Part shown: one piece after another, positions 6,769 to 61,827 of the stretch | How the letters are laid out: every line of letters begins with the position of its first letter | How positions within the stretch are numbered: position 1 is the stretch's first letter | Origin: Amoebidium appalachense | Taxonomy: Eukaryota > Protista > Ichthyosporea | Direction: 5' to 3' | Length of the DNA stretch: 64,000 nucleotides | Assembly: GCA_963693365.1 (NCBI GenBank) | Contig: CAVNZM010000012.1 | Span: 1,984,001 to 2,048,000 of the forward strand | Notes under the pieces: model-generated | Database searches by the model: none | What the model was told of the DNA's origin: nothing | Seen by the model: the letters and a program-made list of their open reading frames with translations, nothing else | Translations under genes and position numbers: made by a program

Positions 6769-6986
6769 CGGAGTTCAGGTTGGCACATTTTGGTTTAGGC
6801 GGCCAATAAGGACACAGAGATTAAGGATTTCGGTCCTCATTGGCCACAAGCGCACCCAGCATGTCGCCGCTGTGTACATAAGCATCCGCACACAGGCAAC
6901 ATCACACCAAGCAAACATGAGCCATACGTACACAGTTGAGGTGCACACCACAGTCACGTTCACCACACCCCCCAAACAACAGCAAA

Positions 6987-23547: not shown

Positions 23548-23593
23548 GGTGGTTGTTTGCCTTTATTGTAGTTGCACATTTTTTCGCACCGTG

Positions 23594-25716: not shown

Positions 25717-25816
25717 GGGGTAGTGGTGGGTCTGGAACGTGATGGTCTGTCTCTCCTCGTCCCAGCTCCCAAAGAAGAGGGGGTGCCCATGCTGTGTGGG
25801 GTGTCTGGGTTGCTTA

Positions 25817-31353: not shown

Positions 31354-33102
31354 ATGGCAGCCCCCTACGACGCCTCCGTGCCCCTCAACCTGGCCTACCA
31401 CAAGCTGACGGACGCCGGCACCTACTCACCTGTCGAGCTCAGCCACATTAACCGCCGATCGACCGTCAAGACCTATCCGGTGACCGGCTCGACGTACAGC
31501 TCCAAGGGGCAGCGTGTGATTCGATTCTCCCTGCCTGCCGTGGGCTTCCTGGACTGTCTCAACAGCTACATGACGTTCCAGTTCAAGGCCAACGTCCCCA
31601 ACGCCCCCGAGAACGTGGGTGTCAAGGTGGAGAGACTGCGGAAGTTCCCCCTCCCTGACCAGCTCGACCACCCCATCAGCAACAACCAGGACACTGTCGG
31701 CTATGAGGGTACCACTGTGCCCCAGACCGGGACGGCTGATTCTGACACCCTCAATCCGGCGGCTGTTGCCAGTAAGGACATTTTCCCTCTCAAGGTCCGT
31801 AACCTGGAGGGTATGGCTATGATGGGTGGTCACCTGTGCTCCTCGGCTGCCCCCTTTGACCGTGCCCGCGTGTCCATCAACGGCACTACCGTGGAGGACA
31901 TTTCTGGGTACAACCACCTCATGATCAACCTTGAACGCTTCCTGTCGTCGGCCGACTACGGCAACTGCCCTGCCGGCCGCATGCATGGCACCTACGGGCC
32001 CCAGGACGACGACTGGGAGTACGCAGACAAGTGGAATACGGCTGTCGATAGTAAATACGCTCTCTTCAACCCCGACCCGCTCAAGAGGCTGTTTGGCATT
32101 GAAAAGCTCAAGGACGTAGCCCCCCTTGCCAATGACACCTTGATACCCACACCCGCCGAGGCCGACAGTGTACCCGGCAAGGACCGCATTACAGACGGCA
32201 AGTACCTCGACTACACCAAGAAGGTGGCCAAGTGGCCACCCCAGCAGGTCAACGTTCAGGCCCAGATCGATGCCACTGACGGGTTCACCTACATTCATCA
32301 GCTCAAGCTCGGCCTCATGCGTTCCGGCAGGTACCTGCCCCTGTCATACATGGGGGAGGTACAGATCGAGCTGTCGCTGGGGGAGGCCAACCAGGTGCTG
32401 TACGTGCCCACCGAGAACGCGGAATGGGTGAAGGACGTGTCCTACGAGATTATCAACCCCGTCTTCCACTGTGAAATTATTGAGTGGAACGCCGTGTACA
32501 CGGCCGGCTTTGAGAAGGCTCTGATGGAGAAGAACGTGTATATTCCATACAGCACGTTCACCCATTTCCAGAGCTACGTCAAGGGGGGCAGTCCTGCCGA
32601 CCTGCACATTTCGTTCCGGGGGCGGAACGTCAAGTCCCTGCTGTCCCTGGTGAGGAGTGGCAACGACTGGGCCCAAGCAAACAGCGAGACGTTCAGGTCC
32701 AAGCGTAGTAACATCACCAGCTACCAGATCAAGATAGGACCCTACCAGAAGCCCCTCGACGAGATTCGAGTGTCCTCGAACAACTGTGCCGAGGCATGGG
32801 CGGAGTTGGCCAAGGCCCTGTACTTCTTGGGTGACGTCACGGCCGACTGCATGTACAACAGCACTGCCTGGCCGGATAAACAGTTCATGATTGCCCTTGA
32901 CCTGGAGAGGGACCGTGACCTGTACTCTGGCCTCGACACCAGCTCCGATGCTACCCCCATTCTGCTGCACCTCAACACGGAGAAGTTCACCAGCGGTACC
33001 TCCAGAGCCAACGAGTACGACGACCTGACCCTTGACACGTTTGTGCACCATGAAAACGTGCTTGTGCTGTCTGGTGCCCGTGAGGTGACGGTGGAGGCCT
33101 AG
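31354..33102 (+). CDS. Major capsid protein (double jelly-roll, Polinton/PLV-like), 582 aa
   Basis: VIRFSLP..GFLDCLNSYMTFQF, FDRARVSINGTTVEDISGYNHL, RYLPLSYMGEVQIELSL and FMIALDLE; directly follows the ATPase. Confidence 0.88.
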   Translation: MAAPYDASVPLNLAYHKLTDAGTYSPVELSHINRRSTVKTYPVTGSTYSSKGQRVIRFSLPAVGFLDCLNSYMTFQFKANVPNAPENVGVKVERLRKFPLPDQLDHPISNNQDTVGYEGTTVPQTGTADSDTLNPAAVASKDIFPLKVRNLEGMAMMGGHLCSSAAPFDRARVSINGTTVEDISGYNHLMINLERFLSSADYGNCPAGRMHGTYGPQDDDWEYADKWNTAVDSKYALFNPDPLKRLFGIEKLKDVAPLANDTLIPTPAEADSVPGKDRITDGKYLDYTKKVAKWPPQQVNVQAQIDATDGFTYIHQLKLGLMRSGRYLPLSYMGEVQIELSLGEANQVLYVPTENAEWVKDVSYEIINPVFHCEIIEWNAVYTAGFEKALMEKNVYIPYSTFTHFQSYVKGGSPADLHISFRGRNVKSLLSLVRSGNDWAQANSETFRSKRSNITSYQIKIGPYQKPLDEIRVSSNNCAEAWAELAKALYFLGDVTADCMYNSTAWPDKQFMIALDLERDRDLYSGLDTSSDATPILLHLNTEKFTSGTSRANEYDDLTLDTFVHHENVLVLSGAREVTVEA

Positions 33103-36579: not shown

Positions 36580-37467
36580 CTACAGGTAAAACATGTTGTA
36601 TTCCACAAGCATGTGGTAGTTTTTAAGGTCCCTCTCCAGCTGCACCCACACCTTGTCACTCTTGACTCTAGTCACCTTGCTTTTGACGGCCGGCACCAGC
36701 CTAGCCACCACCTCAGCATCCATACCACCCACTAATTCCACCATTTTCACCAGCAGGAACGGGTACCCCACAAAGTTCTTCCTTGTGTCCTCCTTGTGCC
36801 TCCTATGCCACGACAAGGAGAACTTAAACATGCCCATCAACAGCTCGAGCTGTTCACACGTGAACCTAGGGAGGGGGTGACCGTACAGCCTGTTTAATAT
36901 ATAAGGTACACGCATGTAGTGTTTTGTAAGCTTGTTCTGTCTCAACACCCTCCTTGCCTGGTCTGCATTCTCTATGTGTGCCACACCCCTGAATGCTGCC
37001 ACCACCCCCTCCTGCATGTCCCCCATGGAAGCATTCAACCCCTGCACCGACTGAAGTAGCTGCTTGAAGTGGTTGATGTGTCTGTATGGCTGTGACCTCT
37101 TCCTGTCCCAGAAGGCCGTGCACCCCTCATAGGTCTTCCTCCCCTCACCGTCACTCCCCTCCCACCCCCTCCCGTCGTACACCCAGTCCTCCTCCCCCTC
37201 TCCCTCCCCCTCCTCCCCCCCTTTCCCTCCCCCCTCCTCGTACACGTACTCCTGGACTCCTCCGTCGTGCCCGTAGTCGTCGTGTCCCCCCGTGGACGTC
37301 TCCCTGTTGCAGTATGCCCACCAACATGCATTCGGTGGTTGTAGTGGGGGTGGGGGTGGGGGTGTGGTCGGGCTACAGTACATGTCGAAGAGGAAGGGGC
37401 ATAAGTCTAGCAGCTTCTCGGGGTCTGTGGTGTCTGCCACCATACTTAGCAGTGTGTCTTCATCCAT
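36580..37467 (-). CDS. Poxvirus VLTF3 (A2)-like late transcription factor
   Basis: YRHINHFKQLLQSVQG, RKNFVGYPFLLVKMVELVG and KS-x5-KSDKVWVQLERDL match NCLDV VLTF3 C-terminal motifs. Confidence 0.82.
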   Translation of the reverse strand: MDEDTLLSMVADTTDPEKLLDLCPFLFDMYCSPTTPPPPPPLQPPNACWWAYCNRETSTGGHDDYGHDGGVQEYVYEEGGGKGGEEGEGEGEEDWVYDGRGWEGSDGEGRKTYEGCTAFWDRKRSQPYRHINHFKQLLQSVQGLNASMGDMQEGVVAAFRGVAHIENADQARRVLRQNKLTKHYMRVPYILNRLYGHPLPRFTCEQLELLMGMFKFSLSWHRRHKEDTRKNFVGYPFLLVKMVELVGGMDAEVVARLVPAVKSKVTRVKSDKVWVQLERDLKNYHMLVEYNMFYL

Positions 37468-37972: not shown

Positions 37973-40900
37973 TCAAAACTGCAGAGTCCCCTCCGGTGCT
38001 GCCCACCCAATGGGGTAGCTGCGTACACTGCCGTCGGCTGCCTCAAACACCCCCCTCTTGTCGAAGGCCCCCGACTGTGTCTTCCTCTGGTCCTTGCTGG
38101 CCAGGTGGTAGTTGTGGGGCACCCCGGGCACGGGCTCGCGCAGCAGCCGGTGGTTGGTGACACTCACACTCGGCATCTCCCCGTGCACCAGCATACGGAG
38201 GCTGGGGAGGTTCACCATGTCGGCTGCACGACGGGAGAGGGTGATGCCCTTGACCTTGACGTCGGTCTTGCCGTCCTGGGTGCGGTAGGCATAGGTCTTG
38301 GGGGCCACTCCAACAAACTCGACGATGGGGGCGGTGGTCTCGTTCTTCCAGTTGCCCAGCAAGTCCCCGTTGGTGGAGTCGATGTTGTGGCTGAGGTGGG
38401 GCACCCTGCTGTCGTAGTGGTAGACGATGGAGTCCGTGTCCATGTACACCACCTGCTGGGGGGAGAGGGACCGGAGGGCACCATAGAGGTGCAGCCGTGC
38501 ATGGGCCGTCACGAACGTGCCGATGGCGATGTTCGCGTAGGAGGGGGGTGGGGCCGTCTCCTTCTTGGGCCTGTACTTGATGGCCACCCTCTGCTCGCCG
38601 ATGGGCTCGACGTCCAGCACCAAGATGTTGGGGTTGGTCACCAGCAGACTCAGCCGATCGACATCGTCGACAAACTCGATGGTGTCGAGCCCTGCCCTCT
38701 GCACCAGCTTGCCCCAGAGGCTGTTCAAAAACAGCTTGCTGATGGTACGAAGGGCAGGGTTGGGGCTGAACTCGTCGGCCGTCACCGTGATGCCGTAGTG
38801 CTCCTTGAACAGGTGCACGAGGGCGGGTATGTCGGCAGGATCCACGGTGGTGCTGGTGAGCTTCACCTTCAGGAAGGTCTGCACGTACTTCCGAAACAGG
38901 TTCTTGGTGCGTTTCTTGAAATGCACCACATCGTACACATCGAGGATGGTGTACCCATCACGCACGGCCACCTTCAGCTCCTCCGTCGTCCACGTGCCGA
39001 CCAGTGCCCTCTCCTCGTCCGTGTGTGTGCATTGCACATGCTCACGCACCCGGGGGTTGCCCTCCTCGTCCATGCAGGTGGCCAGGGCCTCCTCCTTGCT
39101 GCTGCAGGCCCTGCACAGCACAAAGCCCAGCTTGTCGTACCCCTGGGCACCCGTCATACGCACAGGCAGCACGGGGATGAAGAGATCCTTGGGGGGGAGC
39201 ACCCTCACACGTGCAACACCAAAGTACCCCTTGGTCCTGGCCTTGGGGGAGCCGGGGGTCATACGGCACGTCTTGTCGAGCCTCTCCTTGAGCACCTGGG
39301 GGTCCGTGACGATGACCGAGGGGTGGTCCTCCGGCTTGATGGGCAGTGACGTGAACCACTGTGACTTGCCCACCGGCATGTACTTGTCAATCATCACGTA
39401 CGGGTAGAGGGACGTGACGTCGACGTACTTGAGCCCTGCCTGTGGCCAGTCCTCCTCCTTGACCTCGATGTGACGAGTGATGACCTCCGTACGGCCACCA
39501 AAGAAGGCATCACGGAACTGCACCGGGCCCGTGGGCACGGGGGCCACCCTGCCGGTGCCCTCCCTCCGTGCTGCCTGTGCTGCAAGTGCTGCCTTCACCT
39601 CCGGGCTCTGCCGAAGCCTGTCCCACCTGCACTCCCACATGCTCTGCACCTTGTGCCCCTGGGCACGGATGTACCTCTCGTGGCCCATGGTGCTGTCGTA
39701 GGCCTCCTTGGCCGACCTCTTCACCACCCTCATCGTCAGATCCTCGTGCATATTGCATTCGGGGCACCCGTGGAACACACACCCGTGGAAGAAGTAGTAG
39801 GTGCACGTGCCGTCGTCGTGGGTGGCCTTGGCATCGGCCGTGGCCCGCCCGTGGGGGCCGTACCCGGTGGCCTCGTGCCGTGCAATGTCGTCGGGCCCCA
39901 CCCCCAGCCCGTGGGTGACGTAGTCGATGTACTCCTGCTCCTTCTTGCTGCTGTTGACGTTGCCCATGGTCTGGTCTCGAAGCACAGCCACGTCCTTGGG
40001 CATGGCCTGTGAGATCCAGAAGTGCATGGCCAGTGCTGCAAGGGTCACACACGTGAAGGGGTCGATGCCCGTCAGCTCAATGAGTTTGGACATGAAGGCC
40101 TTGACCACCTGCTGCAGCAGCACCACGTCCTTGACACAGTAGTCCTCACACTGCTGCACAATGTCGTAGCACGTGGCTGCCGGGGCCCCCTCAAGCAGAC
40201 GTGCCTGCTCCTCGTGCCACCACTGCATGAAGGCAGCATGCTGTCTGGGCTTCATGTCCTGGGCACCAAAGTCCTCGGGCCCGGGGAAGGGAATGGTGCC
40301 GGCCTTGAAGTTGGCAAAGGTGGCTGCATGGTGGGGGAAGTGGCCCTTGGTCTCCTCACACCCCATGGCCTTGCCCGCATCTGACAGGGACATGGTGAGG
40401 AAGTTGAGGGTGTCCACGAACGTCAGCTCCACCACCGTGGTACGGCTACCGCCCCCCCTCTCCCCCCCGTGCCGTCTCTTGTGGCCGGTGCCTGCTGCTG
40501 CTGCTGCTGCTGCTGCTGCCTGCTGCTGCACATCACCATGGCCATCACCATCCACCGGCATGGGTGTGGGCTCGGGGTCTGCTGCACCGGCACCCTTGAG
40601 GTAGTGACGTATACGGCAGGACTTGATCTTGCTGTTGGTCATGATGGGCACGTACACATAGTCCTGGCTGCCCACCACCCTCTTGGTCACAAAGTGGAAG
40701 TCGAAGCCACTGCCGTTGTGGCAAAACACCCGGCCACCGGCGTGGGCAGGGGTGTCAAACAGCCACTTGACCACCTTGTCAATCACGTGGTGGTTGTCGT
40801 CCATCAACACGTCCCAGGCGTCCTTGCCGTCGGCCGAGGGCTCCGGCCAGAAGATGATGGGGCCAGTCGGTTGGCCATCTGACGGCTCGACGTACATGGC

Positions 40901-43531
40901 CACAGCAAGGTACACAATGTGGATGAAGTGGGGGTTGTCGGGTGTGTGGTCGGGGGCTGGCACCGGCATGGTCTCAAAGTCCAGCACAATGTCCCTGATG
41001 GGCTGCCTGGTCTGCTTCCACACACCCCCGGGTCCGCTGCCGTCATTGTCGGGCACGTGCCGTTTGCACACGTGTGCACCCACCCTGCTGCCGGCAGCAT
41101 CCACCCTGACCCTCTGCCGTGCAGGTGACTCTCCCCCCTCCTCCCCCTCCCCCTGCTCGTTGGAGAAGCATGCCACCCTGTCACACACCGCACCGTCTGC
41201 ATCCGTGTGTGTGCACATATACACACGCCGTTGGCCACTGAGCTTGCTACGTATGAGGCACGTGTGGTTGCCGGGCATATAGCCCCCACAGCCCTTGCAG
41301 GCGTAGTCGGTGCACAGGTGTTGTGTCCACGTGTCGTCCTTCTTGGCCCCGTGCTCACCCCCCTCACCCCCCTCCCCCTCCCCCTCAGACATCTGCATGA
41401 GGTCGACGGCATCATCCTCGTCATCACTCTCACTCTCGTCGTCTGACGACTCGACAAGGCAGGGTGGGGGGTCTGTGCCTGTGTCGGAGTCCTCCCCCTC
41501 CGTGTCCGTGGCATAGTCCCAGTCCTCCCCCTCGTCGTTGGGGCCTGCATCTGCCCCTGCATCGTACCCCCCTTGCTCCTGGGCAGTGTGCAGCCGGCGT
41601 AGACGGCGCACGCTGGCGTACTTGAACTTGTAGAAGAACCGGCCGGCAGGATTGCCCGACACACACACCCTGAGGGCATCATCTCCACTGCCAATCATCC
41701 TGTACCCCTGCAGGCCGTGGGTGCACGTGGCCAGCCGGCACCAGAACACGGTGTCACAGAAGGATTGTTGCCGGCCGTCGGCCCTGGCCCCGGCCCCCTT
41801 GAGCTTGGTGCTGTGGTTGGCCATGCACCTGGCCGAAGGGAAGAGGCCACAGCAGTCGTCACAACGGTAAGGCCATGCATCCTCCCCCACCCGTGCTAGC
41901 TCCACACGGCGCCCGGGGGTCCACACACAGGCATCTGCCTGGTCGATGTGGTTCCCCTTTGATCCACAGTTCCCACACCGGTTCACACAACGGTGCACCC
42001 CCATGTTCTTGGATTGCACGGTCTGGTTGCAGTGGAAGCAGGTGCTGAGGCTCCGACGTACGGCCCCCGTGTGGTTGCCGTTGCGCAGGCGCTCGATGGT
42101 GTTGCTGACATTGGAGGGGATGGCCATGAAGTGGCCCAGCTTCTGGGAGTGGCCAAGGTACATGGTGCACAGCTTGCCGGGGGGAAGGGCCGAGCTCACG
42201 TCCCCGTACCTTCTTGCCACCCTACCCTTGCTGTCCAGGTCCACCACCACCAGCCGTAGACGGGTGACTGACTGGGTCTCACTGGCAATCTGCATGTTGA
42301 GGGCATCCACGGCTGCACCCAACTGATCCACCGTCAGCCCGTCCTCTGCAGGCACAGGCAGCTTGTACTTGGCCCACAGCCGGCGGGTGGCCCTTGCCAG
42401 CCTGCGCAGGTAGCGGTCCTGGAAGTTGCTCCTTGGGTTGATGGGTGGCTGCAGCAGGTTGCACACCCCACAGCCGGAAGACACAGACCTACCCAGAGCC
42501 TTGTTGCCAATACCAATCACATCCATAGGGTCCAGTAGTTGGCACAGCACGTGGTGGTCCTTGAGCTTCATGAGGTCACCCCCATTGCCCAGGTTCTTAC
42601 GAGTGTGCTCGGAGGGCAGGCTGCCGTTCTCGTTGCTGTTGGCTGCCTTGCTGACCCACATTGCCATACAGTACACCAGGCACAGCTGGGCACAGGAGGG
42701 GCCGTCGGCAATCTCAAGCAGCTGATGGTGGTCAAGCTCCTTCTCCCCTGTCACCTGCGGGTCGTTGCTGCTGCAGGCTGCCTTCACCAGGGTGGTCACA
42801 TCCACCACGGCCTTGGCCTCCACCAGCTCCCGCAGCCACTGGGCTGTCACCCCTGTGAGGGTGGACAGGGACCCGCAGGCACCCTTCCTCACCATGTCCT
42901 TGGGCCGGACCACGGTCAGATGCACACTGGATCGCCCGTCCATAAAGGTCTCGGCTGCACTCTGGGTGCGTTGGCGTATGTTCTCCATCAGCTTGAGCAC
43001 CACGGCATTCACATCACCGTTGAACACGTCCATGGGGCCTGCCGTAAACACACGACGGTTGGTGACATCGGCGTTGGGGTTGCCGTCATCCCCCACCTGG
43101 TTGTCCACACCATTGGCCTGCACGTGCAAGCTGATGATGCGTACGATGATCATGTCCCCCACCTGCACATCTGCACGGGCGATGGCATCAAACAGCATAG
43201 CTGCAAAGAACTGGGGGAACTCGGTGACGTCCATGGTGCGCAGGGGTTGGTACTCGAGGGTGTGGCCGCGTACGCCCAACCCCCTTGCCTGCATGTCATC
43301 CACCCGTGAACGCAGCTGCCAGTTGCCCTCGGCAGGCATGGCAATGATCTGGGGGTCATCTGGGTGGTTGATGGGGGCGGGGGCAGGGGGGAGGCCGGGG
43401 GGGGGTGGGGGTGGGGGTGGTGGGCCCTGCAGGGCCTGCAGAAACGGGTTGGCTTGCAGGGCCTGCTGCGGGTCGGCATCCAGTGCCCGCAGCAGGTCCT
43501 CTATGAAACCTTCCTGGCTGTCGTCTAACAT
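37973..43531 (-). CDS. Protein-primed family B DNA polymerase, 1852 aa
   Basis: Exonuclease LDFET, HNGSGFD, YCVKDV; polymerase FFGGRTE, DVTSLYP, KLFLNSLWGK, YMDTDS, KTYAY; Vsr-like insert FHGCVFHGC...MWECRW; long Cys-rich N-terminus. Confidence 0.97.
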   Translation of the reverse strand: MLDDSQEGFIEDLLRALDADPQQALQANPFLQALQGPPPPPPPPPGLPPAPAPINHPDDPQIIAMPAEGNWQLRSRVDDMQARGLGVRGHTLEYQPLRTMDVTEFPQFFAAMLFDAIARADVQVGDMIIVRIISLHVQANGVDNQVGDDGNPNADVTNRRVFTAGPMDVFNGDVNAVVLKLMENIRQRTQSAAETFMDGRSSVHLTVVRPKDMVRKGACGSLSTLTGVTAQWLRELVEAKAVVDVTTLVKAACSSNDPQVTGEKELDHHQLLEIADGPSCAQLCLVYCMAMWVSKAANSNENGSLPSEHTRKNLGNGGDLMKLKDHHVLCQLLDPMDVIGIGNKALGRSVSSGCGVCNLLQPPINPRSNFQDRYLRRLARATRRLWAKYKLPVPAEDGLTVDQLGAAVDALNMQIASETQSVTRLRLVVVDLDSKGRVARRYGDVSSALPPGKLCTMYLGHSQKLGHFMAIPSNVSNTIERLRNGNHTGAVRRSLSTCFHCNQTVQSKNMGVHRCVNRCGNCGSKGNHIDQADACVWTPGRRVELARVGEDAWPYRCDDCCGLFPSARCMANHSTKLKGAGARADGRQQSFCDTVFWCRLATCTHGLQGYRMIGSGDDALRVCVSGNPAGRFFYKFKYASVRRLRRLHTAQEQGGYDAGADAGPNDEGEDWDYATDTEGEDSDTGTDPPPCLVESSDDESESDDEDDAVDLMQMSEGEGEGGEGGEHGAKKDDTWTQHLCTDYACKGCGGYMPGNHTCLIRSKLSGQRRVYMCTHTDADGAVCDRVACFSNEQGEGEEGGESPARQRVRVDAAGSRVGAHVCKRHVPDNDGSGPGGVWKQTRQPIRDIVLDFETMPVPAPDHTPDNPHFIHIVYLAVAMYVEPSDGQPTGPIIFWPEPSADGKDAWDVLMDDNHHVIDKVVKWLFDTPAHAGGRVFCHNGSGFDFHFVTKRVVGSQDYVYVPIMTNSKIKSCRIRHYLKGAGAADPEPTPMPVDGDGHGDVQQQAAAAAAAAAGTGHKRRHGGERGGGSRTTVVELTFVDTLNFLTMSLSDAGKAMGCEETKGHFPHHAATFANFKAGTIPFPGPEDFGAQDMKPRQHAAFMQWWHEEQARLLEGAPAATCYDIVQQCEDYCVKDVVLLQQVVKAFMSKLIELTGIDPFTCVTLAALAMHFWISQAMPKDVAVLRDQTMGNVNSSKKEQEYIDYVTHGLGVGPDDIARHEATGYGPHGRATADAKATHDDGTCTYYFFHGCVFHGCPECNMHEDLTMRVVKRSAKEAYDSTMGHERYIRAQGHKVQSMWECRWDRLRQSPEVKAALAAQAARREGTGRVAPVPTGPVQFRDAFFGGRTEVITRHIEVKEEDWPQAGLKYVDVTSLYPYVMIDKYMPVGKSQWFTSLPIKPEDHPSVIVTDPQVLKERLDKTCRMTPGSPKARTKGYFGVARVRVLPPKDLFIPVLPVRMTGAQGYDKLGFVLCRACSSKEEALATCMDEEGNPRVREHVQCTHTDEERALVGTWTTEELKVAVRDGYTILDVYDVVHFKKRTKNLFRKYVQTFLKVKLTSTTVDPADIPALVHLFKEHYGITVTADEFSPNPALRTISKLFLNSLWGKLVQRAGLDTIEFVDDVDRLSLLVTNPNILVLDVEPIGEQRVAIKYRPKKETAPPPSYANIAIGTFVTAHARLHLYGALRSLSPQQVVYMDTDSIVYHYDSRVPHLSHNIDSTNGDLLGNWKNETTAPIVEFVGVAPKTYAYRTQDGKTDVKVKGITLSRRAADMVNLPSLRMLVHGEMPSVSVTNHRLLREPVPGVPHNYHLASKDQRKTQSGAFDKRGVFEAADGSVRSYPIGWAAPEGTLQF

Positions 43532-45138: not shown

Positions 45139-45143
45139 GGCAC

Positions 45144-45510
45144 CTACTTCAACGTGACGTTGGAGCTCCCCAACCCCCTTGGCCGCAACCCCTGCCTCTT
45201 CAAGCTGGGCAACAACGCTGCCTCCATCGACGAGTTTGTGGAGTTTATGAACTCCCAACGTGCCAAGTGCCGTGAGGTGACTGCCTGGGTGTCTGCAGCT
45301 GCCACCAGCGTCATCTACAACAAGAAGAACAACACTGTGCGTTCCAAGCTCGTTGCCCGCAAGGTTCAGGTGTTTGACTTAGATGGCCTGATGGAGCTGG
45401 CTGGTGGTGAGGGGGGCGAGGGGGAGGGGGGTGATGTAGACTTGGGGCAGGCTAAGCGTGCAGGCACGCCCATGCCCGGTAATGACGATGCCAAAATGCT
45501 CAGAATGTAA
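45144..45510 (+). pseudogene. Copy A ORF1, 3' part
   Basis: YFNVTLELPNP... matches 16066-16433. Confidence 0.9.
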
Positions 45511-45833
45511 TGACACACGACTGTATATTGAGAACATATTTGTCTACGGGTGATTGCCACGAAATAAACGGTCAAAAAACTTGTGTTTTTGGGGAAAAAC
45601 GAACACTGTGAGCTATGTGACCGACTTGACTTGTGGCGCAATGAGAGGGAGTGTCAAAGACTTGCGCAAGTATGAGCCGATGAAATTTTGCGAATTTATC
45701 TCCAGGAATGCCCAGCATGTCGTTTTTTCTTCTCTTTCCCTGTCTTTCTCAAAAAAAAACTTGAAAATCCTTTTCAATCATCTCTTTTCGTAGAAAAAAG
45801 TCTTTTAAAGTTTTTGTTACCGTAGTAGACAAA

Positions 45834-45878
<45 letters not shown>

Positions 45879-45986
45879 CTCGTTTCCTTTCGTTAGTTTT
45901 GTGAAAAAACTTGAAAATCCTTTTCAATCATCTCTTTTCGTAGAAAAAAGTCTTTTAAAGTTTTTTTGTTACTTAGACAAATCTTT

Positions 45987-46032
<46 letters not shown>

Positions 46033-46054
46033 GACTTAGGGTCAGAAAGCAATC

Positions 46055-47098
46055 ATGCCTCCTCGTCGTAGACAACCCACTTCTCGTTTCATGAGAAAGG
46101 CAAAAAGCCCAACCAAGTTTGACCAATTTTTGAACCTCTTTTGTGTTGCGTACGTGGCTGTTTTCAACGCAGCATACGAGTACATTCAGTACATCACAAA
46201 GGGTGATTGGGCCCAGCGCCCACGTTGTCCCAACCTGGTGGAGTGCTATCATAACTGGGCAGAGGCTGAGGAGACACTTATCGAGGCAAACGTTGCAGAG
46301 AAGGACGAGATTCTGGAACGTGAGCGTCTGATTAGTGCCATACAGATTGGCGTTGTGTCATGGTCATTCTCGCAGAAGGAGGCCCTACCGGGGGTTCTAA
46401 ACGAGGTTTTTCATACGGACGTGTTTAAGTGGGACTGCAAGGACGGGGTGTGGTCGGTCGGCATCGCTGTGCCTGTGTATGACACCGGTATGGATGATGG
46501 TTATGGCGAGGCCGAGTCGATCTTTAAAGACCGTGACGACACGTTCACTTTCACCCGCAAGTGCTTCGATTTCATGCAGGGGGTGGTCAACATACTCGAA
46601 CGGGCCGGGAAGTTAGATTTGATGCTACACCAACACGTCATCGACACCTACACCGACACCATGGATATTTGGGGAGCAGCATGCAAGTACAAAAAGTTTA
46701 TCAATGGAGAGTGGTTTGCCCCCGTCATACCCATGTACGACTTCTACCCGGCATCCAGACAGGAGAAACAGGTGGAATTGGGTAGAGAGACGGTCGAGAA
46801 GGTCATGGATGCCCTCGAGCTACTTACCCATGGACACGTTGCCTACCCCCGTGACATTATGGACCTGCTGAACGAATGCATCGGCATACCTCAGCTGTTT
46901 AGTGTGGTTTACGAGAGAGTCAGCAAGAGCACACGGTATGCTAAAAAACGCCCCAAATTCCAGAATTCTGTGATGAGAAAGACGGAGTATGTGTCGGTGT
47001 GGACCCTTATACTGGCAGCCCCACCCGAAAGCCCCAACGCACCCGCCGAGCGCCAACCCATCACACTGCAGAAATTAATGCTTAAAGATGGGGAGTAA
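46055..47098 (+). CDS. Copy A homolog of 16987-18030
   Basis: One amino-acid difference (T/A). Confidence 0.8.
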   Translation: MPPRRRQPTSRFMRKAKSPTKFDQFLNLFCVAYVAVFNAAYEYIQYITKGDWAQRPRCPNLVECYHNWAEAEETLIEANVAEKDEILERERLISAIQIGVVSWSFSQKEALPGVLNEVFHTDVFKWDCKDGVWSVGIAVPVYDTGMDDGYGEAESIFKDRDDTFTFTRKCFDFMQGVVNILERAGKLDLMLHQHVIDTYTDTMDIWGAACKYKKFINGEWFAPVIPMYDFYPASRQEKQVELGRETVEKVMDALELLTHGHVAYPRDIMDLLNECIGIPQLFSVVYERVSKSTRYAKKRPKFQNSVMRKTEYVSVWTLILAAPPESPNAPAERQPITLQKLMLKDGE

Positions 47099-47526
47099 GC
47101 ACACACACACACACACACACACACATGCACACATGCACATGCACACTTAAATCGTTGTCTTCTTAGGCACACACACGTGCAGGCACACGTGTGCAATGCA
47201 CCGCAGTAGTCTTGGGTTTGTACTCAGCTTGTTTTTCGTAAAAATAAAAGTTTATTTTTGCCGTCGATTGTCTTTGTAAAAAAGAAAAAACGTGGAAATA
47301 AAGGGCTCTGCCCATTGTCTTCACAAAAAAACGTGTCTATGGTCATGGACGAGCTGAGAGGGTAAAAAACGTATAAAACGTGCAAGTATAGGGCACAGCC
47401 CTGCACGGTCACCCCTAACCTAACCACTTAGGTAGATGACGTCGCTGTTCACAGTCTTGAGGAGGGAAGAAGTACGGGGCTTAGACACCTGGACCCCACC
47501 GTAGAAGTAGCGAGCACCGTGGGCCA

Positions 47527-48006
47527 TGTAAACAGTTGAACTAGTTAGGATAAGGCAGAGTACAACTGAATCAAAATAAAGACAGAGAACGGGTAGAAAG
47601 GCACACGCGGCCAGGTTGCTTTTACTATGGGCCGACTCAGTCTGTCTCAGACTTCACTGATGTGATCCCCGTACTGGGACGGCTTTGTTATATAGCCCCC
47701 AGGTTTCGGATCAAGGCCCAGGATTGGTTCATCCGCGGCCAGCGCGGGTGGCAACATGCCATTCGTGATTCTGGTGCGGTCCGAGCCAGTCAGACCTTTG
47801 TCCTATTTATGCAAACCTCTTATTGGTTCACTTCGTTTATGTGGTATGCAGCTGAAGAACCATATATGGTTCAATTCTTAGGTCAGAGTAAGTCCTATTG
47901 GTGCGGACATAATATTTATGTGATATTCATGACAAAGCACGAATCGTGTGGTAGTAGATCACATTCTTTAGTAAACATGTACAGTTCAGGTGTACAGTTG
48001 TTTACA
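47527..48006 (-). repeat. 3' LTR of non-autonomous element (480 bp)
   Basis: Direct repeat of 50602-51229 without the 148-bp duplication. Confidence 0.95.
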
Positions 48007-50601
48007 CTCCCCCCCTTGTCGGGAGCCTGGTGGTGTCGTTAGACAAGCAAACCACCAGGCTGAGAGGCGATAAACAACCTTCAGCGAGAATTCTTGTGTG
48101 TGCCGAGCTGCTGGACAGAACAGAGCAAGGACGGTGGAATAGAGTTGTGCACGTCTATGAGCACTTCTTCATTTGCCAAAACGTAAATTCATGCAGCATT
48201 CTTCTGTGATTTCATTTTCGTGGCGAAGATTGTTGCAGAGTGTGCGTGCGAATAATTCGCTAAGCCTTCGTCTCTGTGCTTGGCTTTTCTGTAGAAGTAG
48301 TATTTTCCTTTTTGGGAATTTTTCCTTTTTAGGATACTCCCGCAGATTCGTTTTCAATTGCGAGTAATTTGGTTGTGTGGATGAATGATCATACCAAACA
48401 TTCGATAATGAATATAACTCAAGCCTTAGGTCACTTCGTACTCAGGTAGTGGTGGATAGCTTCAAGGCTTAGCCACTGCTCCTTATCCCGGTTCTACCTT
48501 AAGACTGTAAGGCGAGTCACCATGGCCGGAAAAGCCACTTCTTTCATGAACAAAGAGCACTTCTTTCCTTTCAGCTTTAACCCTGCATCATCGGAGCCGG
48601 GAATAACATGAATAAAAATGCCCTAAGTGTTCTTCGTTGGGCGACATAAAGAAATATATCAGCCCGTCAGAACCAGTAAAAACCCGGTTCATAATTCATA
48701 AGAAGAGGGTAGGCAGAGCAAGTCTTCTTCAGAAAACACATGCTTCCATTCGTGAGCAGTTTTCGTATCCCATTTGCCAGCCATTTTCGTTGAGCAGGGG
48801 GATTCCAGGCATAATACATTCTTCTGGAGGCTTGGCCTAAAAAGAAAAGTCGTCGGAGTCGCCCTTTCTTTTGTAAGCAACTTCGTGAGCGCGCTTCGTG
48901 TTTTCATATCCTCCAGTGCAGGTCTGGATGGTGCCCCATCCTCTGCTTCATTTGTAGGTGGCCCTACTGTAGGTTCTGTTCGTTGTGTGGAATACCAAAA
49001 CCATTCGTATTCGTGGAACTGCTTTGTGCTGTGCTTTCTTTCGTGTTGGTGTTCATGAAGTTACCCCGTTCACACACCCTACTTCTTACATACATTAGAT
49101 GTAAGTAGCTGCCTGGTGAGTGTGTGGTTCGTGTTCGTGGCATTCTTCTGTTCCTTCGTGAGAAGAATATTCGTTTTAGCAGAGGTGCCCAATAAGGCAG
49201 CTTGTGGGGTTGTCTCCCGCATGTGCCCATTGGTGGGGTATGCACGTGCTAAATTGTTACAGTGTCATCATATTGCAAGGGAATAACATGGTCACCTCCG
49301 TACCAGGGCCTAGTAGGTACACATGATGGTCCGATGTGTTAGTCAACAACACCTTGCATTCGTATTCGTATTTGTCTTCCACGTCACTTTCTTCAGTAGT
49401 GAAGGAGGGTATTCGTAATTCGAAACTGAAAGGCTTCCAGCCAAAATACTGACACTGTATGATGGGGTTGTGAGGGAGCGGTGCCCATACCACATTCTTT
49501 TGTTCTGGTGGGGGTGTGCCGGCAGCTAGTGCAAGGCTTGACAGTGTAATTGGTATGTTACACCGTATTGCCACAGACGGGCATTCACCTTAAAATTCGT
49601 ACCCAACACCTTCTTTGTTTTTCACATGCATGAACAAAAGTTCTGCATCGACTTTATTACATGCCTTTTGTGCACCAAGAGTGCAAATTCGTTAGGGCGT
49701 GGCACCAGGAAGGGCCGCCATACATGAGTCAGGCATATGTTCGTAATGTGTTTAGGCATGCCAGCATACATTCATGCGCATGTTGTGCATCCTGGGCGCT
49801 AAACTATGGGGCATGCTGTATTCGAGAACAGCAAGGGATTCGAAGCATGCATGCAACACTACTTTCATAAGATCTTAGGTCCTACATGCTATAGCAACAG
49901 CGACTATCTTCTTCGTTAAGTGCATTTGTGCTGAAAGTGGCCGTGCATCTGGCTTGCGAGTGTGGACGTGCATGCGGTGGCATGGACACGATGGCAGTGT
50001 GCAATAGGGCAATGCACGCAAGGGCAACGGTTTTATTTTCTTCCTAACATAGAGGGGGCTGTGTGCATTGCAACCCAAGCAGTGTTGTGCATTCGTCCTT
50101 TCATTTTCGTATTTCCAGTTCATTTTGCTTTCGTTTTTCGTTTTTTGTCGTTTGATAACTTCGTTACTTCGTTTTGTTTTCGTGTTGCATTCATTTCGTA
50201 TTTCCTCTATGCAATCGTTTGTCGTTAATTCTTTATTTCATTGCGTATTCGTGATGGTTCGTTTTTCGTTGGTTCATTGCTTCGTTAGCAATTCTTTATT
50301 CGTTTGTTCGTGTATTCGTTGTTTCGTTGTGTATTCGTTTTTCTTCACATTTTTGATGTGTCGTAGCAAAAGAAGTTTTACATGCTTTCAATTCTTTCCG
50401 TGTAGGTGGGCTGGCCACTTCAAACTTGTAGGTGTATATATTCTAAGCCGGACAAGGAAAGATGTGCCTATCATCGGGGTAAAAAGGATTGTGATCGGCC
50501 ATGGGAGATTCTTGAGCTGATTGAAAGATGTGAGATTCTTGAACTGATTGAAAGATGTGAGATTCGAAGGATGCGAGATTCTTGAACTGCGCGGTCGCCA
50601 A

Positions 50602-51229
50602 TGTAAACAGTTGAACTAGTTAGGATAAGGCAGAGTACAACTGAATCAAAATAAAGACAGAGAACGGGTAGAAAGGCACACGCGGCCAGGTTGCTTTTAC
50701 TATGGGCCGACTCAGTCTGTCTCAGACTTCACTGATGTGATCCCCGTACTGGGACGGCTTTGTTATATAGCCCCCAGGTTTCGGATCAAGGCCCAGGATT
50801 GGTTCATCCGCGGCCAGCGCGGGTGGCAACATGCCATTCGTGATTCTGGTGCGGTCCGAGCCAGTCAGACCTTTGTCCTATTTATGCAAACCTCTTATTG
50901 GTTCACTTCGTTTATGTGGTATGCAGCTGAAGAACCATATATGGTTCAATTCTTAGGTCAGAGTGAGTCCTATTGGTGCGGACATAATATTTATGTGATA
51001 TTCATGAGCCAGTCAGACCTTTGTCCTATTTATGCAAACCTCTTATTGGTTCACTTCGTTTATGTGGTATGCAGCTGAAGAACCATATATGGTTCAATTC
51101 TTAGGTCAGAGTGAGTCCTATTGGTGCGGACATAATATTTATGTGATATTCATGACAAAGCACGAATCGTGTGGTAGTAGATCACATTCTTTAGTAAACA
51201 TGTACAGTTCAGGTGTACAGTTGTTTACA
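50602..51229 (-). repeat. 5' LTR of non-autonomous element (628 bp, with internal 148-bp tandem duplication)
   Basis: GAGCCAGTCAGACC begins at both 50858 and 51006. Confidence 0.95.
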
Positions 51230-57123: not shown

Positions 57124-58485
57124 TTAGGGCATGGTCCATTTTGGCCCGTTGTCCCAGTCACCCACATCCACGACGTTGTGGTCGGGCCCGTACTTACCCT
57201 GGTTGTTCTTCCAGGCCTCGAGCTCGGCGGCGTAGTTGTCGTAGTCGGTGGCGGCCCGGCGTGCCTTCCTCTTGCCCATCTTGCCAATGCCCGTGCCTAG
57301 CTTCCCTCCGTACCTCTGTGCGAGTTTGCATGCCCCCTTGCCGACTGCAGACACGGCATCGCCGACCACAGGTATGAACCCCATCAGGTCCATCACACTC
57401 TCCACAATGTCCAACGGGCTTGGTTTGAACGTTTCCTCTTCGACGAAGTCTCTCAGCACGGGCACAAAGTTGATCTCCCTCGGCCTCACCATGAACCACA
57501 GGTCGTTTTCCTGCATGCTCTGTGGCACCTTTCCGTTGGGCATGTGTGCGCGTATGGTGTTGAGGTACTGTTTGAGGGCCGAGCCCACCGGTTCCCATAG
57601 CTGGTCCACCTCGTCCCAGGGGTCGGGGGAAACGGCTTCGTTGTAGTTTAGACGTAGCACCCGGCTTGTCACCCTGTACGTGAGCTCCATTTCCGGGTGG
57701 GGTAGTGACCCTTTGGGGCCCGAATACACGCTCTTGTTGGTCCCCCCCAAATCACCGACGGCGCTGACGGTGGTTTCGTATTGAAACATGACGCTGGGAA
57801 ACTTGTAGTGGACCTTGTAGTCAAGTTTCACGTAGCCCATGCGTGTGGTGGTGTAGTCGTTGGGGCCCCTGTTGGAGAAGTGCAGGAGGCCCGGCCTGAA
57901 GTACCGTGTCTTGGTTGTGCCCGTTATGGTCTCCTGCTCCTGTGCCCACACCCTACTCTTTATCCAGTTTGTGAGAACCTTGTCGTCGTAGGGGAACTTT
58001 CCGCCCCCGGGCAGGTCGGGGTTGTCCTCGTTGATGTAGTCCATGTGCCAGTCGTTGTTGGTGTCGTGCAGGTCCGTGTGGTCAACCTCTGTGTTGATGA
58101 TGGGCACGTCGTGCAGGTACTCGGCCTTCTCGACGACGACCTGGTTGAGCTCGTACAGCTGGCTGCTGTCTAGGTTGGCGGTGAGCTTGCCGGCAATGTG
58201 CTGCTGCAGCGGCTCCCCCCGGGGCACGGTGCCCATGACAATGTCGTACGTCATGAACGGTAAGACCCTGCTGATGCCCTTCTTGTTGTAGGCGTAGTTG
58301 TTGTTGAGGGGGTACGTGTTTGATGATATGACGGCCTCCATGGTTGGGGTGTAGGGCCAAAGGGTGGCGTGTCTTGCCTCGTCCGTTTCGTTTTCGTAGA
58401 AGTTGGTGTACGTGTGGCCATCGTCCTTGTCCTGCCCGTTTATGCCGACATGGTCGAACTTGAAGCATGCGGTTCGTGCAGACAT
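57124..58485 (-). CDS. Copy A homolog of 24355-25716
   Basis: Near-identical; motif reads DLMGFIPVVGDAV. Confidence 0.8.
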   Translation of the reverse strand: MSARTACFKFDHVGINGQDKDDGHTYTNFYENETDEARHATLWPYTPTMEAVISSNTYPLNNNYAYNKKGISRVLPFMTYDIVMGTVPRGEPLQQHIAGKLTANLDSSQLYELNQVVVEKAEYLHDVPIINTEVDHTDLHDTNNDWHMDYINEDNPDLPGGGKFPYDDKVLTNWIKSRVWAQEQETITGTTKTRYFRPGLLHFSNRGPNDYTTTRMGYVKLDYKVHYKFPSVMFQYETTVSAVGDLGGTNKSVYSGPKGSLPHPEMELTYRVTSRVLRLNYNEAVSPDPWDEVDQLWEPVGSALKQYLNTIRAHMPNGKVPQSMQENDLWFMVRPREINFVPVLRDFVEEETFKPSPLDIVESVMDLMGFIPVVGDAVSAVGKGACKLAQRYGGKLGTGIGKMGKRKARRAATDYDNYAAELEAWKNNQGKYGPDHNVVDVGDWDNGPKWTMP

Positions 58486-59129
58486 GGGGTAGTGGTGGGT
58501 CTGGAACGTGATGGTCTGTCTCTCCTCGTCCCAGCTCCCAAAGAAGAGGGGGTGCCCATGCTGTGTGGGGTGTCTGGGTTGCTTATCATGGGAAACTTGG
58601 GGAAGTCGGGTCGTTCGGGCAGGGCCGTCTTGATCTGTCTGTTTATGGTACGCACCGACGTCCACCCGTCGGAAAACAGAAAGTTTGGCCGGACCCACAT
58701 GGAGTAGGGAAATATCGGGTCGGGGGTTAGGCCCTCCAGCCTCAGCAGGCGACGTACAATGTTGTCCTCGAAGTTCTCCTTGTCGTCCCCCCACAGCACC
58801 TTTACTATAGTGTCCAAGGTTTCCTTCATGGTGTCGTAGACGGTGTGCTCGTCCCAGTTCTTGACCATACCCTTTTCCAACAGCACCACCCTCCTCTCCA
58901 GGTCGTCCAGCCGGTCGGTCACCTCCGCCACGGGCATGAAGGTACCGGCCCCCACCTCGTCCACCTTCAAGAAGGCAGGCCCCCCTCGGGGGAGGCTTTT
59001 GGGCAGCTCGAGGACGTAGCTGTCGTGCCCGTGCCCGCTCGAATCGGGTCGGATGCCGACGTAGTAGTCTGCGCTCTTCGGGCCCACCAGGGAGAGCCCC
59101 TGGGCAACGTGCCACGCTAAAGCGCTCAT
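58440..59129 (-). CDS. Copy A homolog of 25817-26359 (extended by a 1-bp indel)
   Basis: Matches copy B up to ERPD, then reads in a different frame. Confidence 0.7.
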   Translation of the reverse strand: MSALAWHVAQGLSLVGPKSADYYVGIRPDSSGHGHDSYVLELPKSLPRGGPAFLKVDEVGAGTFMPVAEVTDRLDDLERRVVLLEKGMVKNWDEHTVYDTMKETLDTIVKVLWGDDKENFEDNIVRRLLRLEGLTPDPIFPYSMWVRPNFLFSDGWTSVRTINRQIKTALPERPDFPKFPMISNPDTPHSMGTPSSLGAGTRRDRPSRSRPTTTPCLHEPHASSSTMSA

Positions 59130-59158
59130 GGTGGGTTTACTAGTGTGTTAGAAATAAT

Positions 59159-59218
59159 TTAGTTTCTCGGTGCCAGTAGGGGAATTCCCTGGGAAACGTG
59201 CCACTGCAAATGACTCAT
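59159..59218 (-). pseudogene. 19-codon remnant (MSHLQWHVSQGIPLLAPRN*) of a divergent homolog of the downstream gene
   Basis: 10/19 identities to MSALAWHVAQGLSLVGPKS; CACCATG start; absent from copy B. Confidence 0.85.
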
Positions 59219-59260
59219 GGTGAGTCTTAATACCCCGTAGAGAAAAATTCACCTTGGCAC

Positions 59261-60688
59261 CTAGGGTAGCCAGCTACCTGTCTCGGTTGCATATGGGTAG
59301 TCGGCAAAGTAGTTTGGATCGTGGAAGTTGAGGTCTGTTCTCGGAATGCTAGATTTGTTGACATATTCGCTAAAGTGGGGGTACCTGGCAATCACCTGCA
59401 CGTTGAATGCATTGTAGCCTGACGCATTGCCAAAGCTATAGGTGTCAGAGGCTCTATTGGTCACCCTTATTCGTAGCCAGAAATCTGTCCCGTTTCCTGT
59501 GGGCTGTAGTTCCCCCTCGATCAGACCACACCCTATGGCAAACGGGTAATGGCCGTTCGGACTAACAGGGTCCACACAGGCCATGGACACCCGACCTTCC
59601 TGCACCATGAACTGGAATTGTTTGTTGCCGAGCGCCTTCCAAAACTCGTGCACGATGAGCAGTTCGGCCCCTGGCTGTGTCATCCACCCAAGGTTGATGT
59701 TTGGGTCGGTGCCCGACTTGAGGCTAAAAATGTCACCCCATGCAGCGGCTGTATCGCCCAAGAGGGAGCTCCACGTTCGGTTGGTAATGTGGTACACCTT
59801 CACTGCCTTGTACGCTGGGCCGGTCCTCTGCCTCACCCACGCTTCATCGGCCAGCCTGTTGGTGTTGGCAGGGAGTCTGTTCTTGATGGCCGTCATGTCC
59901 GTTGTGAGTGTACCGGTGGTAGTCTTGAGGCCGGCAATGTCCGTGTTCTGTGTGGTGTTGACCGTCACTGCGCCGTTGGCCGTGTTGAGGGCGGTGGTGG
60001 CCTTGCCCTCCACTGCCGTCAGCCTCGTGTCCAGGCTCCCCGTGGTGGTCTTGAGGCCGGCAATGTCCGTGTTCTGTGTGGTGTTGACCGTCACTGCGCC
60101 GTTGGCCGTGTTGAGGGCGGTGGTGGCCTTGCCCTCCACTGCCGTCAGCCTCGTGTCCAGGCCCCCCGTGGTGGTCTTGAGGTCGGCAATGTCCGTGTTC
60201 TGTGTGGTGTTGACCGTCACTGCGCCGTTGGCCGTGTTGAGGGCGGTGGTGGCCTTGCCCTCCACTACCGTCAGCCTCGTGTCCAGACCTCCTGCCGTGG
60301 TTTTGAGCCCGACAATGTCCGTGTTCTGCATGGTGTTCACACCCTCCACGGCCGTCATTCGGGTACCCAGACCTTCCGTTGTGGTTTTGAGACCGGCAAT
60401 GTCCGTGTCCTGTGTGGTGTTTACTTCTTCTACGGTAGCCACCCTGGCCCCCAGTGCCTGCACGGTTGCATCGGACGGCACGTCGGCAGCGTCCACAAAC
60501 GACATGTTGCCGTTGGGGTCACATGCCATGTAGGCAAATGTAGCCGGCCCGGTCAAGGGCAATGTCAGATCGTATGCATCGTGTTTGTGGCCTGTTGTGT
60601 TGGCCACCACCCCCACGTAGTAGCCGTCTTTTCGTCGGTTCGTGAGTGCAAGCCCGTCAGCCACGGTCCAGTTGAGTGATTTGGGCAT
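59261..60688 (-). CDS. Copy A fiber/spike protein with alternative head domain, 475 aa
   Basis: N-terminus and shaft match copy B; the C-terminal ~215 aa are homologous but strongly diverged. Confidence 0.85.
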   Translation of the reverse strand: MPKSLNWTVADGLALTNRRKDGYYVGVVANTTGHKHDAYDLTLPLTGPATFAYMACDPNGNMSFVDAADVPSDATVQALGARVATVEEVNTTQDTDIAGLKTTTEGLGTRMTAVEGVNTMQNTDIVGLKTTAGGLDTRLTVVEGKATTALNTANGAVTVNTTQNTDIADLKTTTGGLDTRLTAVEGKATTALNTANGAVTVNTTQNTDIAGLKTTTGSLDTRLTAVEGKATTALNTANGAVTVNTTQNTDIAGLKTTTGTLTTDMTAIKNRLPANTNRLADEAWVRQRTGPAYKAVKVYHITNRTWSSLLGDTAAAWGDIFSLKSGTDPNINLGWMTQPGAELLIVHEFWKALGNKQFQFMVQEGRVSMACVDPVSPNGHYPFAIGCGLIEGELQPTGNGTDFWLRIRVTNRASDTYSFGNASGYNAFNVQVIARYPHFSEYVNKSSIPRTDLNFHDPNYFADYPYATETGSWLP

Positions 60689-60768
60689 GGTTGCACAAGT
60701 GTGCACGTTACTACATGACGTTGAATTTTTGTACGGTGTTTATAACGGTATTTGTGCCCACTACCACC

Positions 60769-61827
60769 ATGGACCAAGCCCCAACACACCTCGTAGTCAT
60801 GCAACACGTCGGTGACTTTGTGCAAGGCCAGAAGGACCCTGCCCCTGTGGAAATGAAGGCCATGCTGTCTCCCCCGATAGGGTTCCAGCAGAACACGTCG
60901 TTGGGGGTCAAGTGGGTGAGCACCATGACCACCCCCACCACCTTCTACTACCCGTACCCCCGTGATGAGTGCTATGTCAACATGGCCCGCCAGCTCCCGA
61001 CCCCGGGAGGGGGGTGGGGCTCACCCACCGACATCCAGCGCCTGTACTTTGAAGCCACACCCGACGAGTTGCAAATCGAACCTGGCAAGAAGGTGTGGCG
61101 TACCATTCCCCTGTGGGAGTTAGGGGTGAGCCCGACGGGTGCCTTTGTGGGTCGTGGGAGCAGCAACGAGTTATCCAGAGACCTGGCGAGTACTGAAAAC
61201 GTCTTTGGGTCGTATATGGGGCATTGGTTGCAGTTCCTGCTGGATAGGTACCTTACGAGCGTACTTGGCAACGACAAACCTGCCGACGGGGAAGTGGAGT
61301 TGAGCTACGACGAGAAGACCGGTCGGATTAAGTTCGTAAACCGTGCACCCGATACCAGGTACCTCATGTGGTTCGACTCGCCGGTGGTGGCTGCTGCAGC
61401 CGGTATGAACGTGGGGGATAGCCTGGTTAGCTCAAAGCCCGGCAGGGACGAGACCACGGCCCCTAATGTTGGGTGTTTCCCCACCCACTTCCTCCTCGAG
61501 CTTCACGGTGTGAACTCAGAGTCGTCCGTGAGTATAGCCAACGCCGACGTCAAGTTTCAGTCCTCCTACCCCAGCAAGGACGTGCTGGCCGTCATTCCTG
61601 CCTTTCCCAACATCACCGTCCCGTTCTTTGACAACGGGGCAGTCATCGAGCTACCACTCGACGTCAGCACGCACATCAACTCTCTCACAGTGAGGCTGGT
61701 GAGCTGTTACGGCAACGTTGTACGGATGAGAGGTGACGTGACCTTTTTATTGTGCCTGAGGCGTATTCCCAGACCCACAGGGTCCACGGTCGTCCGACCC
61801 ATGAGCAAGCCACAACGGTTCGGCTAG
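60769..61827 (+). CDS. Copy A minor capsid (penton) protein
   Basis: Homolog of 27940-28998, one substitution (Y/H). Confidence 0.8.
   Translation: MDQAPTHLVVMQHVGDFVQGQKDPAPVEMKAMLSPPIGFQQNTSLGVKWVSTMTTPTTFYYPYPRDECYVNMARQLPTPGGGWGSPTDIQRLYFEATPDELQIEPGKKVWRTIPLWELGVSPTGAFVGRGSSNELSRDLASTENVFGSYMGHWLQFLLDRYLTSVLGNDKPADGEVELSYDEKTGRIKFVNRAPDTRYLMWFDSPVVAAAAGMNVGDSLVSSKPGRDETTAPNVGCFPTHFLLELHGVNSESSVSIANADVKFQSSYPSKDVLAVIPAFPNITVPFFDNGAVIELPLDVSTHINSLTVRLVSCYGNVVRMRGDVTFLLCLRRIPRPTGSTVVRPMSKPQRFG

Follow-up and report, generated by a model that had tools for sequence, protein, structure and literature searches.

How two copies of one mobile element, almost identical along the rest of their length, come to carry the same gene with different ends is the question raised by a locus of Amoebidium appalachense. 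Self-comparison of the window, the whole stretch of 64,000 nucleotides that was analysed, revealed two nested copies, A and B, of a Polinton-like element of approximately 29 kb. Copy B (14841-44201) is full-length with 29.4 kb and has TIRs, the first 423 bp of which are identical, and a 5-bp target duplication, ATATG; its host site is a Ty3/Gypsy element with LTRs that are identical except at one of 609 sites. Copy A (6307-64000) lies in three pieces (6307-7535, 45139-47526, and from 51230 up to the end of the window) that are separated by two LTR elements; the second of these occupies 47527-51229, and the target duplications at these interrupting insertions are GGCAC and GGCCA. The nesting thus has three levels (6307-51229), with copy B in the Ty3/Gypsy element and the latter in copy A, and the 5-bp duplications are intact. 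Because each insertion carries its own 5-bp duplication, the nesting is biological and copy A represents the older insertion. All nested insertions look recent.

On copy B, Pfam identified a protein-primed-type family B DNA polymerase (37973-43531, minus strand; PF03175, E=4e-37) and an A32-like packaging ATPase (30598-31341, plus strand; PF04665, E=4e-9), both above the cutoff, as well as a Dam-type methyltransferase (20753-21298, minus strand) and a VLTF3-like factor (36580-37467, minus strand). A hydrophobic 268-aa ORF (23546-24352, plus strand) is identical between the copies. The putative rve-type integrase (21616-22935, minus strand) matched rve_3 below the cutoff (E=0.005) and is frameshifted in copy A; the 5-bp target duplication fits an integrase of this type. 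Adjoining the ATPase, an ORF of 582 aa (31354-33102, plus strand) is a candidate for the double jelly-roll major capsid protein by position and size, with one homolog (P0002, 54%), no family, Pfam, PDB-sequence or fold match, and a structure model at a pLDDT of 27. Position also points to a 370-aa ORF without a Pfam match as the candidate penton protein (single jelly-roll). A cysteine maturation protease, part of the complete morphogenetic module of virophages and classical Polintons, did not appear when 29 ORFs were compared with Pfam, a scan that does not extend to small ORFs or to remote homology, and pattern-seeded, insensitive searches of viral and metagenome contigs returned no relatives of the capsid candidate, the ATPase or the polymerase. 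Judged by its gene set, the element is a Polinton or Polinton-like virus; the accessible part of PMC12220804 gives such a gene set for these elements and describes, as found here, lengths of 14-40 kb, TIRs, a short target duplication, pPolB, an A32-like ATPase and many copies in host genomes.

The copies align at 99.46% over 18460-26390/51230-59160 and at 98.97% over 27091-31168/59920-64000, and BLASTN gave no alignment between them at 59161-59919. Outside this swap and a 179-bp shoulder, we counted 66 substitutions in 15,460 bp (0.43%), some of them clustered at 24574-24609, which confirms the claim of a first-pass annotation that the copies are otherwise near-identical with scattered substitutions. 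The end of the fiber gene is the sole diverged block between the window copies over the 15.5 kb compared. Eight shared ORFs hold 17 synonymous and 14 nonsynonymous backbone differences (pN/pS 0.25; p=1.4e-4 for the 17:14 skew against a synonymous site fraction of 0.23), and in a 453-aa ORF, a probable structural gene, 2 of 9 substitutions change a residue. This synonymous excess indicates that the copies descend from selected, replicating lineages, the probable structural gene included. Such selection fits a particle stage, short of proving it; the same skew could also come from short conversion tracts out of older relatives. Copy A itself shows decay, with its two LTR interruptions, the integrase frameshift and a nonsense change in a 207-aa ORF.

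The diverged block falls into a gene for a putative fiber, fiber 1, of 475 aa in allele A (59261-60688, minus strand) and 493 aa in allele B (26378-27859, minus strand), and the peptides previously quoted for the two copies are found in these two frames. The protein is composed of an N-terminal module, a repeat shaft and a C-terminal head. Residues 1-168 are identical between A and B, and nearly so up to residue 255, after which the identity falls to 41% over a C-terminal domain of about 190 aa. The N-terminal module, a putative virion anchor (60479-60688, minus strand), is common to the next gene and, more weakly, to a 196-aa gene, with scores of 119 and 45 that 0 of 1000 shuffles reached. 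Homologous starts of about 60 aa were observed in three genes on the same strand (22957-23547, 25817-26359 and 26378-27859, minus strand). From its sequence, this shared module is a possible capsid-docking domain of no known family; pattern-seeded, insensitive searches for its homologs returned 0 of 1423 candidates and 0 of 54.

The shaft of fiber 1 contains two repeats of 28 aa and three of 42 aa. In allele A, the latter are encoded by three 126-bp units (59924-60301, minus strand), the putative upstream homology arm of the exchange, and repeats 4 and 5 are one site apart. The divergence between the alleles begins at about 60098/27269, inside repeat 4, with 23 substitutions in 179 bp. In allele B, the last 1.4 repeats are diverged, and about 21 extra coil residues precede the head (26378-26938). 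Two long antisense ORFs overlap each fiber allele (59549-60679 and 59583-60533 in A, 26894-27850 and 26961-27704 in B, all plus strand); these are probably a by-product of GC-rich third positions.

Head A comprises residues 285-475 (59261-59836, minus strand), is beta-rich in a low-confidence model, and found no homolog outside the window. Heads A and B share 75 of 185 residues (41%; pairwise E=8e-49), so that the C-terminal part, earlier put at about 215 aa, is indeed homologous yet diverged, with the homologous head itself closer to 190 aa. Their nucleotide identity is 55%, and 15 of 39 fourfold sites are alike. Both heads are open reading frames, with dN of 0.57, dS of 1.34 and a codon-position order of 2>1>3. 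The shared residues together with the near-saturated synonymous sites mark the heads as genuine homologs whose divergence long predates the backbone split of about 0.4%, both having been kept under purifying selection. The dN/dS, proposed earlier as a check on the heads, came to about 0.42 and agrees with old divergence under purifying selection; as a test for diversifying selection we rejected it because synonymous sites are near saturation, which bars a reading as positive selection. Conserved residues make up 28 of 65 strand positions and 30 of 83 loop positions; strands being hardly more conserved than loops, there is no clear pattern of hypervariable loops.

The other side of the block holds a record of the exchange. 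Behind the stop of allele A, the next gene is set off by about 90 additional bases. This scar (59161-59260, minus strand) is absent from B and consists of a 42-nt intergenic stretch and an ATG at 59218 opening a truncated start of 19 codons (MSHLQWHVSQGIPLLAPRN). The remnant MSHLQWHVSQGIPLLAPRN is identical at 45 of 66 nt to the start of the next gene, MSALAWHVAQGLSLVGPKS, and no other match in the window attains 36 or more. The adjoining 13 nt (59148-59160, minus strand), which the window has at 59160 and 26390 and nowhere else, encode the end of the B fiber including its stop; they are unused in A and serve also as the AT-rich upstream sequence of the next gene. Because a 19-codon start of the donor's next gene appears stranded behind the stop of A, allele A is best read as a recombinant.

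The next gene (57124-59129, minus strand; 24355-26359, minus strand, in copy B) appears as two ORFs in both copies, with a frame break between 58485 and 58600. These ORFs of 180/229 aa and 453 aa are probably one gene for a second fiber-like protein of about 670 aa. As contigs from the sequencing runs show other G-run lengths near the frame breaks, the breaks may be long-read errors. The 453-aa ORF has no similarity to fiber 1 and does not start with the anchor module. The start of the next gene (59043-59134, minus strand) is B-type in the window. Listed A-type contigs have up to 16 other letters there, all 16 in the common A-type contig, of which 15 are coding (6, 3 and 6 at codon positions 1, 2 and 3), as well as a last repeat with a signature resembling repeat 4 of B (59942-59946). 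The common A cassette extends from the end of the shared repeat into the next gene. Since the common A contig is unlike the window for about 120 bp further downstream, the edges seen in the window are not those of the cassette, and 59160/61 is the scar. The breakpoints formerly placed near 59920 and at 59160/59161 therefore describe the alignment gap between the window copies; the divergence starts already at about 60098, and the cassette extends past 59160/61.

The stretch is present in 20 of 24 listed sequencing runs, and we examined seven of them over 58300-60900. Their contigs show that the fiber locus is variable at several scales, with at least two further versions. In 4 of 4 runs (X4, X6, X8 and X13; depth 173-546), a third gene leaves the fiber after codon 26. 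This gene, aligned at 60611-60763 and absent from the window, shares only codons of about 6-26, differs in the stretch upstream, and continues with up to 255 or more unlike letters; by visual inspection, both histidines of the anchor are retained in register over the ten codons that follow the shared part. A shaft version approximately 85-90% alike and 84 bp shorter occurs in X4 and X6, and a mosaic patch of about 290 bp inside head A, about 87% alike, in X6 and X10. One contig of depth 29 in X6, with a joint from 58969 to 59163, might be an unscarred donor-type copy, which was not seen at 90% likeness in X6 or X10. In X8, a 24-letter AT-rich loose end at 60212 in the shaft, absent from the window, is possibly another insertion in some copy.

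We consider it probable that this multicopy Polinton-like element carries anciently diverged heads on a predicted trimeric fiber, which are exchanged as a recombination cassette and would alter attachment while leaving anchor and shaft intact. The starting point is observed: two homologous, open heads far older than the 0.4% divergence of the backbone. The scar strongly suggests, at the level of sequence, that head A was donated by a relative whose genes stand in the same order. The transferred fragment would have extended across the donor's intergenic DNA as far as codon 19 of the donor's next gene, and its junction, shifted by 89 nt, would lie directly before the upstream sequence native to the recipient, which left the recipient's next gene expressible. 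Homologous crossovers, within the 126-bp shaft repeats at one end and where the next gene begins at the other, would then have carried the scarred cassette from one near-identical backbone to another. The head would be a distal attachment domain, of which several alleles may persist through binding different partners, putatively on the host surface or on a helper giant virus.

The strongest competitor, which we regard as unlikely, is neutral reshuffling: ectopic gene conversion among integrated copies would place the edges at domain borders simply where homology ends, with no present effect on fitness. Such conversion has a substrate in the large number of near-identical copies, of which two lie nested at a distance of 33 kb, and short mosaic patches (the 87% patch, the 16-site patch and the cluster at 24574-24609) look like its tracts. 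In the same direction point letters common to both window copies and missing from the main contigs, at 58420 and in the G-run near 58547, and the interruption of copy A by two LTR elements. Conversion without consequence fits poorly, however, with two intact heads under long purifying selection, with a single diverged block over 15.5 kb, and with at least four versions at the fiber locus in the contigs (58300-60900).

Whether the protein is a fiber at all bears on the exchange cassette as an attachment module. A three-copy model of residues 214-475 reached 0.87 in each of three runs, whereas none of three controls scored above 0.00; its pLDDT was 44-46. Contact agreement was at least 50% and pLDDT at least 43, and the mark, calibrated on two copies, was attained there by 21 out of 30 solved homo-pairs and by none of 23 single chains. 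Confident contacts between the chains lie in residues 215-292 with the 3-4 residue spacing of coiled coils, and include no head residue beyond 292. A homotrimeric elongated shaft is therefore predicted for the shaft only, and a coiled coil can pass by its likeness to solved ones. The trimer prediction suggested earlier thus came out in favour of the shaft, whereas the head beyond residue 292 was left unplaced, with a low-confidence, beta-rich model.

Modeled alone, the head has about eight strands and a beta-rich core at a pLDDT of 50-75 (mean 52). The best fold match in VIA was CspB at Z 5.9, and domains of phage fiber tips and baseplates followed at Z 4.5-5.3, none diagnostic; an adenovirus knob was absent from the 50 VIA rows and from the Foldseek rows shown. 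Foldseek gave no PDB match at E<=0.001 and, against BFVD, one unnamed viral model (E=8e-4, TM 0.29). Pattern-seeded, insensitive sequence searches yielded 255 candidates of 261-832 residues only, none at E<=0.001, and 0 of 57 pattern matches in metagenome contigs; PDB sequences and phage records returned 0 each. The sole head match among 1.84 billion representatives, P0001, was rejected as spurious, being a tandem-repeat protein with no matched stretch. The Pfam scan left Peptidase_S74, collagen, laminin G and avian-fiber domains all unmatched, and the P22 tail needle gp26 (E=0.06) and a PHROG virion structural family (E=8e-4) are weak hints, none diagnostic.

With no sequence or fold match naming the head, the exchange could be real and the protein a trimeric coiled coil of another kind, such as one that stays internal or interacts with the host. 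We give this reading little credence in view of the fiber-like layout, in which a short shared N-terminal module, a repeat stalk and a variable beta-rich tip stand beside the ATPase/capsid block; the gp26, PHROG and phage-tip matches add hints that are weak and non-diagnostic. For fiber 1, the prediction supports a trimeric stalk with a distal beta-rich domain, and by analogy the head may be a receptor-binding domain. What stands of the modular receptor-binding-domain exchange first proposed is a C-terminal domain recombined on a repeat shaft, with a head that lacks a homolog or a clear fold match. The fiber would be located on the virion, and an extracellular stage of the particle bearing it is a reasonable inference from the gene content and the selection on the copies.

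A chimeric assembly at the breakpoints, which the first-pass annotation had named as fatal to its claim, is contradicted by the contigs, which bridge 59160/61 in 5 of the 7 runs (X2, X4, X6, X8 and X10; three samples dated 2011, 2020 and 2024, one maybe the window's own source) and 59920 in X4, X8 and X13. Single short-read contigs run from backbone through scar and head to shaft in X4 (59013-59980) and X8 (59091-59981). The depths of the A head and the flank in the five bridging runs were 84/328, 119/472, 226/853, 360/2031 and 16/54 (about 0.18-0.29); at about a fifth to three tenths of the flank, A is a common allele, depth not being equal to copy number. The exact A haplotype of the window occurs in no listed contig, so its flanks may reflect gene conversion or assembly cross-talk, and as contigs drop rare variants, conversion and overwriting of the flanks during assembly are both compatible with the contig data. 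That head A was stitched into copy A from another element during assembly is thus very improbable and, for the allele, largely refuted, since false consensus, a risk in polishing near-identical endogenous viruses according to the available portion of PMC10120064, could account for the unmatched flanking letters and touch only about 120 bp of flank, not an allele carried through the scar by single contigs and three samples.

The two remaining runs at the scar, X13 and X16, skip 59160/61 via intron-like joints. These connect 59130 to 59580 and 59130 to the B head (26860) in X13 and X16, and 58259 to 58884 in X13, the latter from a 29-letter loose end; all are GT..AG in splice-like contexts on the plus strand, spanning 58259-59580, and the acceptor in A lies 3 nt ahead of an ATG at 59583. 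We infer that both, guessed as 'DNA?', are RNA runs and that the fiber genes of alleles A and B are each traversed by spliced transcription in antisense.

A farther-reaching form of the exchange, unlikely in our estimate, is that the host genome permanently stores a set of interchangeable fiber cassettes on a near-clonal backbone. Copies reactivated together would recombine in the shaft repeats and anchor genes and release particles with varied tips that track changing host surfaces or giant-virus partners; an orphan head domain and spliced antisense RNA across the cassette would belong to this picture. If true, a eukaryotic chromosome would hold a stock of diversity resembling antigenic variation. 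Near-isogenic natural copies differing mainly in one candidate attachment domain make it testable whether integrated Polinton-like elements continue to move as particles and what determines the range of hosts or helper viruses. The scar is a record of how a new head entered the lineage, and the coexistence of several alleles within a single host would point to endogenous copies as a reservoir of attachment diversity. Should the head do no more than drift among defunct copies, the finding amounts to ordinary mosaicism.

Exchange of fiber tips is established in phages and adenoviruses. As in phage tail fibers, a conserved N-terminal attachment part is combined here with a variable C-terminal tip and recombination in conserved flanks. 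Unlike the phage systems, the setting is an integrated eukaryotic element without homology to phage fibers, and neither an invertase nor a diversity-generating reverse transcriptase lies beside the fiber gene among the ORFs scanned. With the adenovirus fiber, our element has in common the same broad virus supergroup, the layout of tail, shaft and head, and a recombination-prone capsid gene. The adenovirus shaft is a triple beta-spiral of repeats of about 15 aa, whereas the shaft repeats here have 28 or 42 aa with contacts spaced by 3-4 residues and no match to the adenovirus shaft in Pfam.

Closer relatives offer nearer precedents. Fiber-like genes of Polinton-like viruses appear in the accessible parts of PMC12220804, PMC10748475 and 10.1101/2025.10.09.676808, the latter including one truncated tail-fiber gene. 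The first of these proposes modular fiber genes with penton attachment and host-cell recognition; as far as its available text goes, the variety of domains is among elements, whereas we observed allele exchange between 99.5%-identical copies, with a predicted coiled-coil shaft and an orphan head. One block replaced in otherwise similar elements, with nested retrotransposons, is also found in the excerpts of PMC10748475, for pPolB in Polintons, and PMC8547959, for the EMALE02 capsid module in endogenous virophages. Those excerpts concern whole genes or modules, whereas here the replaced unit is a domain within a gene, its junction is still marked by a scar, and near-identical copies carry several alleles. 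In the Guarani virophage, an 81-nt repeat deletion in the collagen-like ORF8 was tested in culture and linked to partner range, according to PMC7242381. It too is a repeat-containing, fiber-like gene of a small eukaryotic dsDNA virus; our case is a domain replacement seen in the sequence. The available parts of PMC13620141 and PMC7805220 report adhesion-rich islands in giant viruses and variable minor capsid genes, respectively. We found no account of head-domain alleles among near-identical endogenous Polinton-like copies in full-text literature searches, supplements and most subscription papers being outside that scope. The principle is a familiar one; new are its setting, the junction scar and the orphan head.
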